NCBI GenBank assembly: GCA_965203095.1
Contig: OZ241877.1
Coordinates: 544,001 to 608,000 of the forward strand
Direction: 5' to 3'
Origin: Bdellovibrionales bacterium
GTDB taxonomy: Bacteria; Bdellovibrionota; Bdellovibrionia; Bdellovibrionales; UBA1609
DNA: 64,000 bases
Below, piece by piece: positions 959 to 27,992 of this stretch. The notes under the pieces were generated by a model, which was not told the DNA's origin, did no database searches, and saw only the letters and a list, made by a program, of their open reading frames with translations. Both the position numbers and the translations under genes were made by a program. The stretch's first letter is position 1. Each line of letters starts with the position of its first letter.

Positions 959-1013
959 GGAAAAAAGTGGCTCTTTTTAAGGTGTGATTTAACACTAACT
1001 TTAAAAAGGAGGA
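959..1013 (+). repeat. Dispersed promoter/RBS module, copy 1 (copy 2 at 27937-27992)
   Basis: 31-bp identical core TGTGATTTAACACTAACTTTAAAAAGGAGGA plus similar upstream AAAAAAGTGG(A)CTCTTTTTAA. Confidence 0.85.
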
Positions 1014-6360: not shown

Positions 6361-6531
6361 CTTTTCCACCATCTTTGGAGCGATGAGTCTGGCCAAGGAG
6401 CTATGGAGTATATCCTTATGCTCACAGTGGTTGCTGGTATCATTTTCATATTCAAAGGTAGAATTTCAGACATAGTAAATGAGCTTGTCGATAAATCAAA
6501 GGACAAAATGGGTAATGCTTTAGATCAATGA
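6361..6531 (+). other. Silent (start-less) Flp pilin cassette
   Basis: Reads LFHHLWSDESGQGAMEYILMLTVVAGIIFIFKGRISDIVNELVDKSKDKMGNALDQ*; in-frame TAG at 6316-6318 and no ATG/GTG/TTG before the G|Q cleavage site. Confidence 0.9.
6362..6422 (+). repeat. 61-bp perfect inverted repeat, left arm
   Basis: Exact reverse complement of 6962-7022. Confidence 0.97.
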
Positions 6532-6645
6532 CCATAATTATAAAAACTAATGGGTTATTTAAAGTTTGATGGTAGGCACTGACTCTATAAACCGAACTCT
6601 CATAATAAGCTTGTAATGAGTAAAGGGAAATCTCAAATCATACTG

Positions 6646-6791
6646 AGTCGTCCGTGAAAAACTTTGCTAAAAAGTCCCCCAGACTTTTTAGCTCCCGTGC
6701 AAACGGGAATCCATACACCTTGTTTTGTAGGAAGAACCCCGTATTTCACTATGTCCAGCTTTCCTGGATTCCCGCTTAAGGCGGGAATGAC
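6646..6791. repeat. Composite REP/MITE-like element between the two flp copies
   Basis: AGTCGTCCGTGAAAAA end, GCTAAAAAGTC..GACTTTTTAGC hairpin, and TCCC-N8/9-GGGAAT palindromes. Confidence 0.8.
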
Positions 6792-6840
6792 TGGGATATT
6801 GCCTCACAGCTGAATAGAGCTATAAAACTTGTCAGGATAG

Positions 6841-7044
6841 TTATTGAGTTTGGACACTGTCTATAGCACCCCTAAGTTTGCCCTCTGTCTGTGTAGTGAG
6901 ATTTCCAACTGCCTCCAGTATTGGTTTTTTAAAAGCTATTACTATAGCCCCAACTACAACCAGCATAAGGATATACTCCATAGCTCCTTGGCCAGACTCA
7001 TCGCTCCAAAGATGGTGGAAAAATTTTTTTATTGATTTTTTCAT
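6841..7044 (-). CDS. flp: Flp family type IVb/c pilin (complete copy with promoter and RBS)
   Basis: DESG|QGAMEY cleavage and EY motif, hydrophobic helix, 67 aa, SD AAGGAGG. Confidence 0.92.
   Translation of the reverse strand: MKKSIKKFFHHLWSDESGQGAMEYILMLVVVGAIVIAFKKPILEAVGNLTTQTEGKLRGAIDSVQTQ
6962..7022 (-). repeat. 61-bp perfect inverted repeat, right arm (inside complete flp)
   Basis: Exact reverse complement of 6362-6422; encodes FHHLWSDESGQGAMEYILML. Confidence 0.97.
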
Positions 7045-13622: not shown

Positions 13623-13772
13623 AACCTCAGCTCAAAAAAAACTAAATTGCACCCCCCTCCCTCTTGACTTGGCTTCATGTGGATATTTTGTATGTGAAAA
13701 CTTATATTCTTCTAAGTGGTATGATAAATTAAGCTCTGCAACTTTTAAACTTAACAAAAAGGAGATCAAACT

Positions 13773-13937
13773 ATGATTATAATTGAACAACTTTTTAATA
13801 AAAAAAGCAAAAAAAAGATTTTTCAGTCAGCCCAAAATGTCCAATTCGCTTATAAGAATTTTAAAACCAAAGCAAAGATGGAAGAGCTAACAGGGCTATT
13901 AAAAAAAAGATTCTTTGACATGGTTAGATACAGATAA
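13773..13937 (+). CDS. Short ORF with strong RBS, possibly the frameshifted N-terminus of the recombinase
   Basis: AAGGAG 8 nt before ATG 13773; overlaps recombinase frame at an A8 tract (13901-13908). Confidence 0.45.
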   Translation: MIIIEQLFNKKSKKKIFQSAQNVQFAYKNFKTKAKMEELTGLLKKRFFDMVRYR

Positions 13938-14913
13938 ATCGGAAATGTCTTTTTCTGATTGTTTTCAGCAATACCTGAAAGGAGGGATTCCCTCTCTAAA
14001 AAAATCTACCAGACAGGCTTACGAGACCCGCTGGAAATATTTTACAACAGGCCCCCTTCCGCATGTTAAAATGAAAGAGTTTAAGGCTCAAACTGTTTAT
14101 AATTGGATGAATTGGCTGAAAGCCCATCCGACAGCAAAAAACAAAAGCAGAAAGACATTTGCTCAAGAGTTAAAAACTCTTAAAATAATTTTGCATTGGC
14201 ATCGCAATTTTGTAGATGAGAATTTTAATGTTCCCATCACTAAAAAACACAAACAGCTTTGCTATTATAAAACGGTTCCACCAAAAAGGCCGGACTACTA
14301 TGCTAAGCCAGAGGAGCTGAGAGAATTTATCTGCTGGCTTAGGGATAATAGAAAAAATCCCATGTATTGGAGGTTGGCCTTGTTTATGGTCTTAACAGGG
14401 GCAAGGGTAGGCGAGGCTTGCGGGCTTTGTTGGAGTGCAGTGGATTTTAAAAGAGGCCATGCCAGAGTGATGAGACAAATGGCTTGGGAGCAAAAAAGCA
14501 AAAGGCCCTATTTAGAGGAAACAACAAAGACTTCCGCCTCTGCCCGTATTTTGTTATTGCCTGATGAGCTGTTGAGGCTTTTAAAGGCAATGAGGGCGGA
14601 AAGCTCGAATAAAACAGGTTTGCTCTTCACCGATCGAAGGGGCAAAGCTGTAAAATACAATGCCATTCAATCTTCTTTTAATGCGGGTTTTATGGCCTTA
14701 GGTTTAACTTGGCGATCGACTCATATTTTAAGGCATTCCTACGCCACAATCGCTTTAATAGCCACTAAAGATTTGTCTGCTGTTCAGGCAAGCCTTGGAC
14801 ATACTTCCAGCCGTATGACAGAAAGGTATGCTAAAGTCATAGCCTTACTTGACAGAAAAACAGCGGAAAAAACAGCCAAGGTTCTGGACATTTTTAGCAA
14901 ATTATCAAAGTGA
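13915..14913 (+). CDS. Tyrosine recombinase/integrase
   Basis: Complete catalytic set: LTGARVGE, TTK, HILRH, LGH, TERY; no good RBS at TTG 13915. Confidence 0.93.
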   Translation: MTWLDTDKSEMSFSDCFQQYLKGGIPSLKKSTRQAYETRWKYFTTGPLPHVKMKEFKAQTVYNWMNWLKAHPTAKNKSRKTFAQELKTLKIILHWHRNFVDENFNVPITKKHKQLCYYKTVPPKRPDYYAKPEELREFICWLRDNRKNPMYWRLALFMVLTGARVGEACGLCWSAVDFKRGHARVMRQMAWEQKSKRPYLEETTKTSASARILLLPDELLRLLKAMRAESSNKTGLLFTDRRGKAVKYNAIQSSFNAGFMALGLTWRSTHILRHSYATIALIATKDLSAVQASLGHTSSRMTERYAKVIALLDRKTAEKTAKVLDIFSKLSK

Positions 14914-14919
14914 TGAACT

Positions 14920-14993
14920 TATACTGATCTTGTTTGAAAATTCCTGCTTTCTCTACTCTGTTTTGACCGGAAATCTCAAATGTAATCAGTATA
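14920..14993. mobile_element. 74-bp MITE with TATACT ends (ERIC/Correia/RUP-like), copy 1
   Basis: Terminal inverted repeats TATACTGAT...ATCAGTATA; related copies at 51092-51161 and 61143-61211. Confidence 0.75.
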
Positions 14994-15109: not shown

Positions 15110-15182
15110 GAAAGTGAATTTTAATAGATTTTTTAAAATGTGTGCGAAAAACTACCGCAATTCACTCAAAAAGTCTTCTAAA
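15110..15182 (+). repeat. Dispersed repeat segment A (direct copy at 27760-27834)
   Basis: GAAAGTGAATTTT..AGATTTTTT..AAATGTGT(T)GCGAAAAACT.CC.CAAT.CA.TCAAA shared by both sites. Confidence 0.85.
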
Positions 15183-15225
15183 TGGTGGATACTACCAAGA
15201 TTAACCTTAAATGCTCTGAAGTTCT

Positions 15226-15255
15226 ATTATTGAGCTATTTTGTTGGAATTGTCAA
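15226..15255 (-). promoter_or_regulatory. Sigma70-like promoter inside the invertible segment, pointing away from the pilin gene
   Basis: TTGACA-N18-AATAAT on minus strand with A/T tracts upstream of the -35. Confidence 0.6.
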
Positions 15256-15407
15256 AAAAATTTTTTAAAAATTTCTCAAGAAAAAGATTTTAAGGGAGGA
15301 TTCAGGTAAAAAAGCCTATAAATAAAGGCTTTTTGCCCACTTCCCGGCCTTCCCGACTTTTATCCTTATGAGACATTTATTCTACCTTTAGACCTAAAAA
15401 GAGGCTT

Positions 15408-15504
15408 AGCAGGCACTAAAAATCTTAAGGAAGGCTTTTTGGACTTAAACCCGCTCAATCTAAAAAAGCCTTTGTTTTCAAGGTTTTTGAGCCTTTCATT
15501 TTTA
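15408..15504 (-). repeat. Dispersed repeat segment B (inverted relative to copy at 27831-27923)
   Basis: GCACTAAAAATCTTAAGGAA.GCTTT..GGACTTAAA.CCCG.TCAATCTAAAAAAGC.TTTGTTTT is the reverse complement of 27.84-27.92 kb. Confidence 0.9.
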
Positions 15505-15590
15505 ACAATCTTGGTAGGAAATACCATTTTCCGAAAAAGATTTGAGCTTAAAGGCTTTGGAAAAACTTAAAACACATAAGGAGATAAATT

Positions 15591-16256
15591 ATGGAAAACA
15601 TAAAAACTTTTTTTAAAAGGCTTTTCTCTGCCTTCACAAAAGAGAGAAAAAACACTTTAGGCTTTTCCCTTGTGGAGCTATTGGTAGTCGTGGCTATCAT
15701 TGGAATTTTAGCCGCCGTGGCTGTGCCAGCTTATAACAAATATCGTGCCAATGCCGCCCAGGGAGCAATCACAGGCTCACTTCAGGCAATGGGTAAAGAC
15801 TTTGTGAATTGTCTTGCGACAAACACATGGGCTAATTGTGACTCTTTAACAGAACTGGGGGGGACTTGCCCAAATTGCATGTCTGGCACAGACGGAACAG
15901 ATGATTTTTGCCTTGATACAGAAAAAGAAGTCGCTGGGACAACATATATGGGTTGCGTAAGTGTTTCTGGTTCTGGGTTGCCTGTTATAGTGGGGAACTG
16001 GCCAAGCCTTTGCTCTGGTATTACCGTGAGTTATGGTTGCACCACGGTAGGATCTTTGACTAATCCAACAAACACATGTGCTGATTTAAATTGTATGAAT
16101 ACAGCCACAGCTCCGGTAGGGGCGGCTTGCACGGCAGGGATAGTCGCCGGGGCAATGGCCATCCAACATAATTGCACGGATACCACGGACGCCAATGCTT
16201 TAACTAATTCAATGGCCGCGGGAAGTTGTGGCATGACGACAGGGGAATGCTCTTAA
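15591..16256 (+). CDS. Type IVa pilin, cysteine-rich
   Basis: G|FSLVELLVVVAIIGILAAVAVPAY N-methyl motif; 14 Cys in the head domain; SD AAGGAG. Confidence 0.92.
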   Translation: MENIKTFFKRLFSAFTKERKNTLGFSLVELLVVVAIIGILAAVAVPAYNKYRANAAQGAITGSLQAMGKDFVNCLATNTWANCDSLTELGGTCPNCMSGTDGTDDFCLDTEKEVAGTTYMGCVSVSGSGLPVIVGNWPSLCSGITVSYGCTTVGSLTNPTNTCADLNCMNTATAPVGAACTAGIVAGAMAIQHNCTDTTDANALTNSMAAGSCGMTTGECS

Positions 16257-16287
16257 GGAGTATATTGCTGATTTAAGTTTAACTATG

Positions 16288-16315
16288 AGGGGGAGTTTTA
16301 TACTCCCCTTTATTT
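16288..16315 (+). terminator. Intrinsic terminator after pilin
   Basis: GGGGAGT-TTTAT-ACTCCCC followed by TTTATTT. Confidence 0.65.
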
Positions 16316-16332
16316 CCTAAAGGATAATAAAA

Positions 16333-16596
16333 ATGAGTTTAAAAGATATAGCTAAGAGAGCACAAAAAGCACAGAGAGATAAAGATAGAGAGAATTTATC
16401 AAAAGCTATTTTAGATTGTTATAAATACCTTAATAAAGAATATCCAGGGGAATACTTTGGAGCAGTTAAAATTGATAATAAACTTGGGATTAGAAAAGAA
16501 AGGGGGCATAGTTCTGGCACACATAGCATTATAAAAAGATTAAAAGAGGATGGTTTTTTAGAGCAAAAGCGGGGGTTTAGGATAAAAAATGACTGA
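16333..16596 (+). CDS. Small basic hypothetical protein, paralog 1 (winged-helix-like)
   Basis: Shares G.Y.GA.KID..L...GH....TH.I...L...G.L.Q..GFR with next ORF; SD AAGGA. Confidence 0.65.
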   Translation: MSLKDIAKRAQKAQRDKDRENLSKAILDCYKYLNKEYPGEYFGAVKIDNKLGIRKERGHSSGTHSIIKRLKEDGFLEQKRGFRIKND

Positions 16597-16813
16597 AAAT
16601 AAAACAAAAAAAAGAGAGATGATAAAGGACTTTTATAAGGATTTTCATAAAAAGCATCTGGGGAAATACATTGGAGCATATAAAATTGATGACAGGCTTA
16701 GTTTTGATCCGGGTCATAACAATTTTCCCACACATGACATTTTATTGGAATTGGTAAAAGAGGGATATTTGAAGCAAAACAAAGGTTCAGGGTTTAGGTT
16801 AAAAAAGAAATGA
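16589..16813 (+). CDS. Small basic hypothetical protein, paralog 2
   Basis: Paralog of 16333-16596; overlaps its stop codon. Confidence 0.65.
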   Translation: MTENKTKKREMIKDFYKDFHKKHLGKYIGAYKIDDRLSFDPGHNNFPTHDILLELVKEGYLKQNKGSGFRLKKK

Positions 16814-16847
16814 CTGAAAAACAAAAAATAGCTGGTGTGATTTTTGG

Positions 16848-17005
16848 CAAGGTTCGCGGGAATGACTGGGTTCACGGAAAAGACAAAGTTGGAATGGATT
16901 CCCGTTTTCACGGGAGCCCAAAAGTCCGGGGGACTTTTGGGCAAATTCACGAGAATGACTTGGTTCACGAGAGCTAAAAAGTCCGGGAGACTTTTAGGTA
17001 AATTC
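16848..17005. repeat. REP cluster
   Basis: GGGAATGAC units, GGATTCCCGTTTTCACGGGA and two AAAAGTCCGGG(G/A)GACTTTT hairpins. Confidence 0.8.
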
Positions 17006-17055
17006 TTTGGACAACAGAGGCAAACTTTTTCACAGGCAGGCAAATAGGTTAAAAG

Positions 17056-17493
17056 ATGACTGAAAAACAAAAAATAGCTGGTGCGATATTTGGAATTGCC
17101 ATAATTGCCTCTGTGGGCTTTGGCTGGAAACACTTTTTAAGTGCTAATGCATGCGATCACTATGGCAATGAGATTAAACGGCTTTTAGACGATCAGGACA
17201 ATCTTTTATTTACTTATGGTTTTTTTGCGGAACACACTTTAACAGAGGATAGACAAAAAGACTTCAAAAGATTGATTGAAGTAAAAGAGCCACTTGTCCG
17301 GGTCACAGTGGAGCACTTTTCAAAAACCTGCCGGTCCTCTCTTAGGAAAAGTGAGCTTATCGCTTTCCTTAAAACTTATGAGATTTATCTTGTGACTAAA
17401 CAAGCTTTCTTTAAACAAAGCCAGCGGTCGGGCTTTGATTGGATAAGAGATACCTTTCCCTTTGATCCTAAAATCTACAAAAACATAGATTAA
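17056..17493 (+). CDS. Membrane-anchored hypothetical protein
   Basis: N-terminal TM helix; first 38 bp duplicated at 16810-16847. Confidence 0.6.
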   Translation: MTEKQKIAGAIFGIAIIASVGFGWKHFLSANACDHYGNEIKRLLDDQDNLLFTYGFFAEHTLTEDRQKDFKRLIEVKEPLVRVTVEHFSKTCRSSLRKSELIAFLKTYEIYLVTKQAFFKQSQRSGFDWIRDTFPFDPKIYKNID

Positions 17494-17540
17494 CTTCATG
17501 AAACTTTTAGTGATTATGAACTCAATTAAATTTTAATTTT

Positions 17541-27642: not shown

Positions 27643-27759
27643 AAAAAATCCTTTATAGTTGGTTTTTTAAAAGCCTCACAAGCTTTTAAGCTTAAAACAG
27701 TTTAAATGAAAATACAAGCTGTTTTTTTGACTGCCTTTTTGAGAGCCAATTATCAAAGG

Positions 27760-27992
27760 GAAAGTGAATTTTTAGTAGATTTTTTTTAAATGTGTTGCGA
27801 AAAACTGCCACAATCCATTCAAAGCTCTTTTAAACTGAAGGGCTGAAAACCCTTAAAACAAAAGCTTTTTTAGATTGAACGGGTTTTAAGTCCAAAGCTT
27901 TCCTTAAGATTTTTAGTGCTTGCCGAGTGGACTGAGGGAAAAAAGTGGACTCTTTTTAAAATGTGATTTAACACTAACTTTAAAAAGGAGGA
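27760..27992 (+). repeat. Mosaic of repeat segments A + B + promoter/RBS module
   Basis: A matches 15110-15182 (direct), B matches 15408-15504 (inverted), last 56 bp match 959-1013 (direct). Confidence 0.88.

Follow-up and report, generated by a model that had tools for sequence, protein, structure and literature searches.

A tyrosine recombinase gene, a pair of inverted repeats with a promoter motif between them and a type IV pilin gene follow one another in the genome of a marine Bdellovibrio-like bacterium. Does this locus form a promoter switch for the pilin, and could the neighbouring recombinase, whose relatives are island integrases, flip it? The window (the whole 64-kb stretch of DNA analyzed) is contained in a two-contig genome of 1.80 Mb, 90% complete. 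The locus is best read as a 312-bp promoter switch, assembled in the OFF state and operated by an integrase-derived recombinase that lacks the arm domain; the chances of this reading are estimated as slightly better than even.

Inverted repeats, promoter motif and segment order

The order of genes and elements is leuS, recombinase, dispersed hairpin repeat, segment A, left repeat, 304 bp, right repeat and type IV pilin. Island-type genes (type ISP restriction enzyme and YhgA-like protein) are located 3′ of the pilin. The features downstream of the recombinase are the following:

14919..14993, no strand assigned: dispersed hairpin repeat with short terminal inverted repeats (blastn; fold z −4.3)
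15110..15179, + strand: segment A, fixed flank, with a second copy at 27760
15180..15202, + strand: left repeat, putative strand-exchange region 15192-15198
15226..15255, − strand: sigma70-type promoter TTGACA-18-AATAAT, aimed away from the pilin as assembled (score 11/12)
15337..15358, + strand: short direct repeat, weakly like the far-end arm sites of the family (rank 148 of ~3.6 million positions)
15409..15506, − strand: segment B, inverted relative to A by comparison with the 27.8-kb copy
15507..15529, − strand: right repeat, putative strand-exchange region 15517-15511, identical to that of the left repeat
15591..16256, + strand: type IV pilin, 221 aa, with a Cys-rich C-terminus and a ribosome-binding site (RBS) at 15578 (PF07963; TIGR02532 over cut-off)
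27749..27923, + strand: older copy of A and B in flipped order, without the repeat

The hairpin repeat, one of ~45 copies of 70–80 nt genome-wide (in the window at 14919-14993, 51090 and 61143), is unconnected with the promoter switch. The 23-bp imperfect inverted repeats with perfect 7-bp and 11-bp blocks described by the first-pass annotation were confirmed: left and right repeat agree at 19 of 23 positions, and all 4 mismatches fall in the 5 bp between the two blocks. A third copy with up to 5 mismatches was not found genome-wide. Contig C1 contains 88 repeat pairs of equal quality, compared with 6 and 9 in two shuffles; after a filter for GC content and complexity 51 pairs are left against 4 and 4, most of them, judged by eye, from dispersed-repeat families. 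A chance pair in one intergenic gap is therefore unlikely, yet not extreme. The first 10 bases of the left repeat are the reverse-complemented 3′ end of the genome's own tRNA-Ala(GGC), a 10-mer with 13 occurrences in C1.

The promoter motif reported earlier between the repeats, directed leftward, was found as described, and only 0.06 such matches are expected in 304 intergenic bp (45 of the 74 strong matches in C1 are intergenic, in 13% of the sequence). In the flipped state the −35 would be located 137 bp and the −10 ~107 bp from the pilin ATG (~110 bp as first proposed). That a promoter aimed at no gene is an anomaly was rejected, as 23 of the 45 strong intergenic matches are without a 100-aa ORF within 300 bp. 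A paralogous pilin (C1:1703514, 49% identical) has its own fixed promoter-like TTGACA 142 bp before the ATG, a distance close to the 137 bp of the flipped form; flipping the window region does not improve its alignment with the sequence upstream of this paralogue. No conserved promoter position was found among 40 pilin upstream regions.

Segment A (15110-15170) aligns with 27760-27823 in forward orientation (86%, E 2e-12), and segment B (15409-15505) with 27923-27829 in reversed orientation (87%, E 5e-26). The second copy of segment A (27760) is preceded by 11 bp that match the end of the recombinase gene. The 27.8-kb copy is collinear with the region flipped in silico, with a 28-bp gap where the repeat would be, which indicates that A and B once stood in the flipped order. 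By eye this gap is placeable between two TAAA words, so that either the repeat was deleted there or the site was inserted later. The alignment thus upholds the A/B inversion with its breakpoint at the repeat, as claimed on first pass; that account omitted the missing repeat of the copy. As judged from these alignments, the segment has existed in the other orientation and has undergone at least one past inversion, which is not proof of a working switch. A 53-nt promoter/RBS block (window 961-1013 and 27940-27992) is common to two unrelated genes.

The repeats could instead be transcription-factor operators or RNA hairpins, with which the breakpoints coincide by accident. Each repeat is palindromic, one is located 24 bp downstream of the −10, and conserved ends with a variable middle are also the pattern of an operator. 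However, both inversion breakpoints lie within a few bases of the repeats, no such site pair is found upstream of the other 38 distinct family pilins, folding of the leader RNA is not beyond that of shuffles (z −0.9 and −0.4), and the three matches of an Rfam search are all at chance level. We consider this explanation very improbable.

Descent of the recombinase and decay of its arm-binding domain

The recombinase gene and its upstream region contain three features:

13720..13764, + strand: putative extended −10 of the recombinase (TATGAT at 13720, promoter assigned by eye) and RBS (13759-13764)
13773..13937, + strand: 54-codon ORF, what is left of a decayed N-terminal arm-binding domain; its frame departs from that of the main ORF at an A8 run (13901-13908)
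13945..14913, + strand: tyrosine recombinase, core-binding and catalytic domains (ATG 13945, 322 aa; PF00589, E 8e-22)

The longest ORF of the recombinase starts at TTG 13915 (332 aa); translation would probably start from ATG 13945, 7 nt past the stop of the remnant ORF. The gap from leuS to the recombinase start is only 150 bp and is without the ORFs that in relatives extend across the start of the integrase.

The recombinase belongs to a Bdellovibrionales clade of Tn916-type integrases, mostly inserting at tRNA 3′ ends. Relatives with 44–70% identity are present in many copies in related genomes, and close relatives among named records are labelled Bdellovibrionales, Bdellovibrionaceae or Oligoflexia. 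Near-identical contigs of the gene occur in marine and sponge metagenome runs (247 nt with 0 differences; 283 nt with 1). Scanning with the recombinase returned 4 close loci among 80 in genomes and none among 80 loci in metagenomes (identity ≤ 40%). A tRNA 3′ end just downstream was flagged in 29 of the 46 near-complete family loci (L381 is probably a false pattern match), a pilin within 4 kb is present in 11, and 7 have neither. In a 20-row tree the window recombinase is sister to L023 (support 100/96), an integrase located at tRNA-Ala(GGC). A separate tRNA array was observed at G000:C1:1739312-1739573, where three tandem tRNA-Ile(GAT)-like genes are found, the second and third progressively degenerate.

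The predicted model of a full-length relative has three N-terminal strands and a helix, and its catalytic domain carries a beta insertion (model strands 237-256); the best fold match is Tn1549 Int. Such an N-domain together with the beta insertion marks the IntTn916 subgroup in the available part of Smyshlyaev et al. (2021, PMC8138268). Since the isolated N-domain gave no significant match in fold, PDB-sequence or Pfam searches, its name is based on secondary structure, position and the available part of PMC8138268. By these two marks, the fold and the 28–29 of 46 loci at a tRNA, the relatives resemble the island integrases of this subgroup as the accessible text of PMC8138268 presents them. 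By contrast, the N-domain of the window enzyme is lost, neither a tRNA nor element genes adjoin its gene, and the enzyme faces two inverted sites. The hallmarks of an integrated island are likewise missing at the window locus, with no tRNA downstream, no near-arm motif and no third copy of the site.

The comparison with fimS and FimB/FimE made on first pass is valid for layout and fails for ancestry: the FimB/FimE model NF007371 gives the recombinase 17.2 bits against a cut-off of 222 (322–332 aa versus 198 model positions), and the closest fold is Tn1549 Int. As in E. coli fimS, a tyrosine recombinase gene is followed by an invertible promoter of ~310 bp (here 312 bp by inference; 314 bp in fimS according to the part of PMC11316696 available) and a pilus subunit gene. 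In contrast, fimS has 9-bp repeats, two short recombinases (FimB and FimE) and chaperone-usher fimbriae, whereas in the window a single integrase-derived enzyme of 322 aa is combined with split repeats of 23 bp and a type IV pilin; the downstream subunit carries the type IV N-methylation motif and so is not a chaperone-usher fimbrial subunit. The locus is fimS-like in layout and is not a member of the fimS family.

The 54-codon ORF shows 0.21–0.32 identity to 15 homologous N-domains, whose 105 pairs among themselves reach 0.30–0.89. All 13 homologue pairs with a body identity of at least 0.70 retain an N-domain identity of at least 0.53; between the window and L023 these values are 0.71 and 0.29. 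The DNA alignment with L023 reveals several indels in the N-terminal region besides the A8 run, and conserved residues are lost. Because of these several indels, a one-base slip would not restore the arm domain. The A7 allele named on first pass would thus not rebuild a full integrase, and a 1-bp slip in the A8 run as an on/off switch of the recombinase was rejected, as the decay extends beyond the run. The A8 frameshift is also present in assembled contigs of run X2.

The body of the recombinase contains no stop and keeps 72 of 75 conserved columns, including all six catalytic residues (R164, K205, H270, R273, H296 and Y305, 332-aa numbering). P0002, a protein from another assembly, is 86% identical to it and is called from the same internal Met. 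Short N-termini are found in ~14 of 118 other homologues as well, some probably by assembly error, so the P0002 start gives only modest support; the P0002 locus was not found among 109 family genomes. On the window branch 4 of 23 changes affect conserved columns versus 10.5 expected (p 0.004), and 7 of all 45 differences between the window and P0002 do so versus 20.6 expected. These substitution counts indicate that the core-binding and catalytic domains are under purifying selection. The window branch is longer than that of P0002 (0.13 versus 0.06). Activity after arm loss has a precedent in Tn1549 Int, which without its arm domain still cleaves DNA and exchanges strands in vitro (PMC5871717, in the part available).

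A second arm-less lineage was observed in this family (L310/L372:577-1569 of G098, P0063, P0064, P0066 and P0075). Its proteins of ~330 aa start at the core-binding domain and have their own RBS, with no tRNA or arm downstream. No inverted repeats were found alongside in 14 kb (P0075 in G098). P0063, P0064, P0066 and P0075 possibly represent a second domestication.

Fit of the repeats to the enzyme and the orientation seen

Whether the repeats suit this enzyme could be judged from the att sites of its relatives. Twenty-eight relative loci were stitched. A tRNA end was present for 18 integrases, and for 12 of these the fetched DNA also contained a far-end copy, which gave 14 far-end copies from 12 elements after three rows with 3 mismatches were dropped as chance. 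Positions are numbered from the TGG that mirrors the CCA of the tRNA (position 1). The first mismatch beyond position 9 is found at position 17 in 8 copies, 18 in 3, 19 in 2 and 15 in 1, and 4 of the 14 copies have a mismatch at positions 1–9. Since the first mismatch is usually at 17, strand exchange would end at 16; with an overlap that is usually 7 bp long and must be identical (bioRxiv 2023.11.06.565760, in the part available), it would cover positions 10–16.

In this numbering the window repeats are identical at −3 to 4 and 10–20, and all 4 mismatches fall at 5–9. In direct orientation the 10–16 stretch matches at only 5 of 7 positions, which favours inversion over excision. The repeats appear to show the pattern expected of cognate inversion sites in the att register. 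This fit is post hoc: it presupposes the left edge of the overlap, and 4 random mismatches miss positions 10–16 with a probability of 0.15. The relatives' register strengthens the link between the repeats and the neighbouring recombinase suggested on first pass. The motif TGGT-N7-ACCA, also pointed out then, is carried by both sites (10 occurrences in C1, the repeats being the sole pair within 2 kb); as a crossover register it is probably wrong, because its spacers match at only 3 of 7 positions in either orientation.

Signatures outside the overlap are weak or absent. The conserved near-arm motif of the family is found at neither repeat (top 21% and 19%), and the likeness of the whole sites to tRNA ends is just in the top 4% for each. 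Segment B is similar to the far arms of 4 close elements (equalled in 0, 20, 24 and 51 of 500 shuffles); over all 15 elements the likeness is not beyond shuffles (104/500). Segment B as a decayed tRNA-Gly core was rejected, being not beyond background (top 7–14%). The ranking that placed the direct repeat at 15337..15358 gave rank 1 to its positive control, the arm of a tmRNA island. This 2-kb island remnant at the tmRNA 3′ end (G000:C1:324262-326238) contains a far-end att copy, arm repeats and a YhgA-like gene, and no integrase; its att copy has a mismatch at position 13, inside the assumed overlap.

Another register is conceivable, in which the inner 11-bp repeats would be element ends, the 5-bp mismatched stretches the crossover, and the segment would be excised and reinserted in either orientation without homology. 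In Tn1549 a 5-bp crossover joins 11-bp repeats, and the Int of this element, which is the best match of the predicted fold, tolerates varied crossover sequences and lengths (PMC5871717, in the part available); the outer 7-bp blocks would make a palindromic target. On the other hand, the clade keeps 16-bp identity at its tRNA att sites, and recurrent homology-free inversion with replication would be expected to equalise the 5-bp stretches. The promoter piece also has no copy elsewhere in the genome, and no excised form is present among 15 of 63 joints listed for run X2. This Tn1549-like register is judged improbable.

The integrase could also be a bystander to inversion by a trans-acting enzyme. 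Besides the integrase, the host genome contains genes for two tyrosine recombinases (by eye, Xer-like) and one serine resolvase, and relatives appear to use dif-like sites in pilin genes. The window repeats, which we take not to be dif-like (by eye, against the consensus), fit the att register of the neighbour instead, and no IS110/Piv-type gene was found in the genome (90% complete). A trans-acting enzyme is hardly to be expected.

An Flp pilin with a silent inverted alternative 3′ end is located at 6362-7044 of the window, with 79-nt arms that are 90% complementary. Contigs of run X2 break at these arms, for which the repeat alone is a sufficient explanation. The 8-mer ATGGTGGA common to this cassette and the left repeat looks like chance, as allowed on first pass, because the Flp arms differ at att-register positions 10–16.

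The orientation of the region could be read in run X2, where one 678-nt contig (14967-15644) crosses both repeats in the assembled orientation with 0 differences. Its depth is 24 compared with 28 in the neighbours. No flipped joint is present among the 15 of 63 X2 joints listed, nor an excised one, and contigs drop rare forms. The assembled orientation is therefore that of the majority of cells in run X2. In runs X5 and X7 the locus is present in short pieces, and none of the pieces listed crosses a repeat. The repeat-promoter-repeat cassette was not found in 40 relatives (DNA) and 9 genus genomes, nor above chance in 300 genomes of the order.

These observations give the main rival explanation its weight: a single inversion, by the then-whole integrase or by template switching, could have turned the promoter away and silenced one pilin copy, with no flipping now. 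The assembled orientation alone in X2, a truncated gene without a proven expression signal, the longer window branch, a paralogous pilin able to take over the function and no conserved cassette in relatives are all consistent with such a frozen state. It is harder to reconcile with a catalytic part that remained open and conserved while the N-terminal 170 bp gained several indels, with repeat blocks that are perfect (18/18) although A and B diverged 14% from their copy, or with the intact pilin ORF and RBS. We regard a frozen relic as rather unlikely.

The promoter switch is preferred. Its descent could be as follows. A Tn916-type island integrase, formerly targeting tRNA 3′ ends, would have been stranded behind leuS; it would have shed the arm-binding domain and the upstream genes of the element and been retained as a two-domain recombinase. 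This enzyme may bind the two inverted att-core-like repeats, and strand exchange in the identical 7-bp stretches 15192-15198 and 15517-15511 would invert 312 bp. In the ON state the promoter would face the type IV pilin; in the OFF state, as assembled, it faces the recombinase gene. Binding, crossover position, recurrent flipping and the effect on the pilin are the presumed parts. The location of L023 at tRNA-Ala(GGC) and the left repeat opening with the 10-mer of that tRNA end point in this direction, as do the inverted pilin cassettes flanked by family members in G011 and G112 (below) and host genes for pilus ATPases (two PilT-family genes pass the cut-off and PilB-like genes fall just short of it). 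Against the switch are the unflipped X2 contig, a cassette found in no relative, the weak or absent att-arm signatures, the longer window branch, the proximity of 11 of 46 family integrases to pilins anyway and the 15% chance of the 10–16 match. That a tRNA-targeting island integrase became a host invertase through arm-domain loss, with att-core-like sites switching a type IV pilin promoter, is plausible and is held with somewhat less than even confidence.

Pilin variation in relatives and significance

Loci L032:4000-7600 (G011) and L381:4650-7900 (G112) consist of a full pilin, a family integrase with an intact N-domain and an inverted truncated pilin. Identity between the pilins begins at a 7-bp word in the AIPAY codons, and the orientation is the same in both genomes. 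By analogy these loci are candidates for Moraxella-like pilin inversion by a tyrosine recombinase. Repeated units of an integrase and a truncated pilin 3′ end are found in G017 (L039, L041, L042 and L278) and G005 (L083 and L084); apparently these are elements which, by inserting into the 5′ end of a pilin gene, provide it with a new 3′ end. The loci of these four genomes show an integrase family repeatedly tied to pilin variation, and equally that adjacency by itself proves little.

Pilin clusters with a common 28-bp dif-like site in the pilin 5′ end (by eye) were observed in L092/L093 (G007), L096 (G002), L099 (G005) and L071/L100 (G001). The site presumably resembles a XerD arm. One copy has an RBS and a long leader, and the others start at the site in both orientations; these clusters are candidates for a XerCD pilin shufflon. 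Similar short ORFs and junction repeats follow both Cys-rich pilin paralogues (window 16256-17500 and L001:8174-9425), which suggests that the pilin travels as a module.

Inversion in Moraxella swaps pilin coding segments by means of the IS110-family enzyme Piv. The window locus would be similar to it as type IV pilin phase variation through DNA inversion (PMC11868660, in the part available). It differs in the part that would flip, a promoter, and in its enzyme, a tyrosine recombinase; the integrase-family loci of G011 and G112 are closer to the Moraxella layout than the window locus. Promoters between inverted repeats before genes of surface structures, some flipped by tyrosine recombinases, are described in the available part of the Bacteroidales literature. 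The window locus differs from these in phylum, promoter type and target, and a tRNA att-core link was not met in the Bacteroidales literature examined.

Promoter inversion itself is well known. In the literature covered (mainly openly accessible, mostly by title or listing) nothing was found on promoter inversion for a type IV pilin; within the same scope, neither inversion in any of the Bdellovibrionota nor an arm-less integrase used as an invertase was the subject of a paper. According to the available part of PMC8138268, mobile integrases gained the arm domain; its loss in the window enzyme would be the reverse of this gain.

The locus points to an on/off switch for a pilus that derives from a mobile element, present-day flipping of which was not observed. 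If this is true, a directional mobile-element integrase is seen turning into a simple reversible switch, and the step from integrase to invertase would be traceable in a lineage where this integrase family apparently also exchanges the 3′ ends of pilins, both by inversion and by insertion. Intact tRNA-targeting relatives at 70–75% identity provide direct controls. Bdellovibrio depends on type IV pili to invade its prey. ON/OFF control of a pilus, together with several other pilin-variation systems in the lineage, would point to strong selection on pili in these uncultured bacteria.
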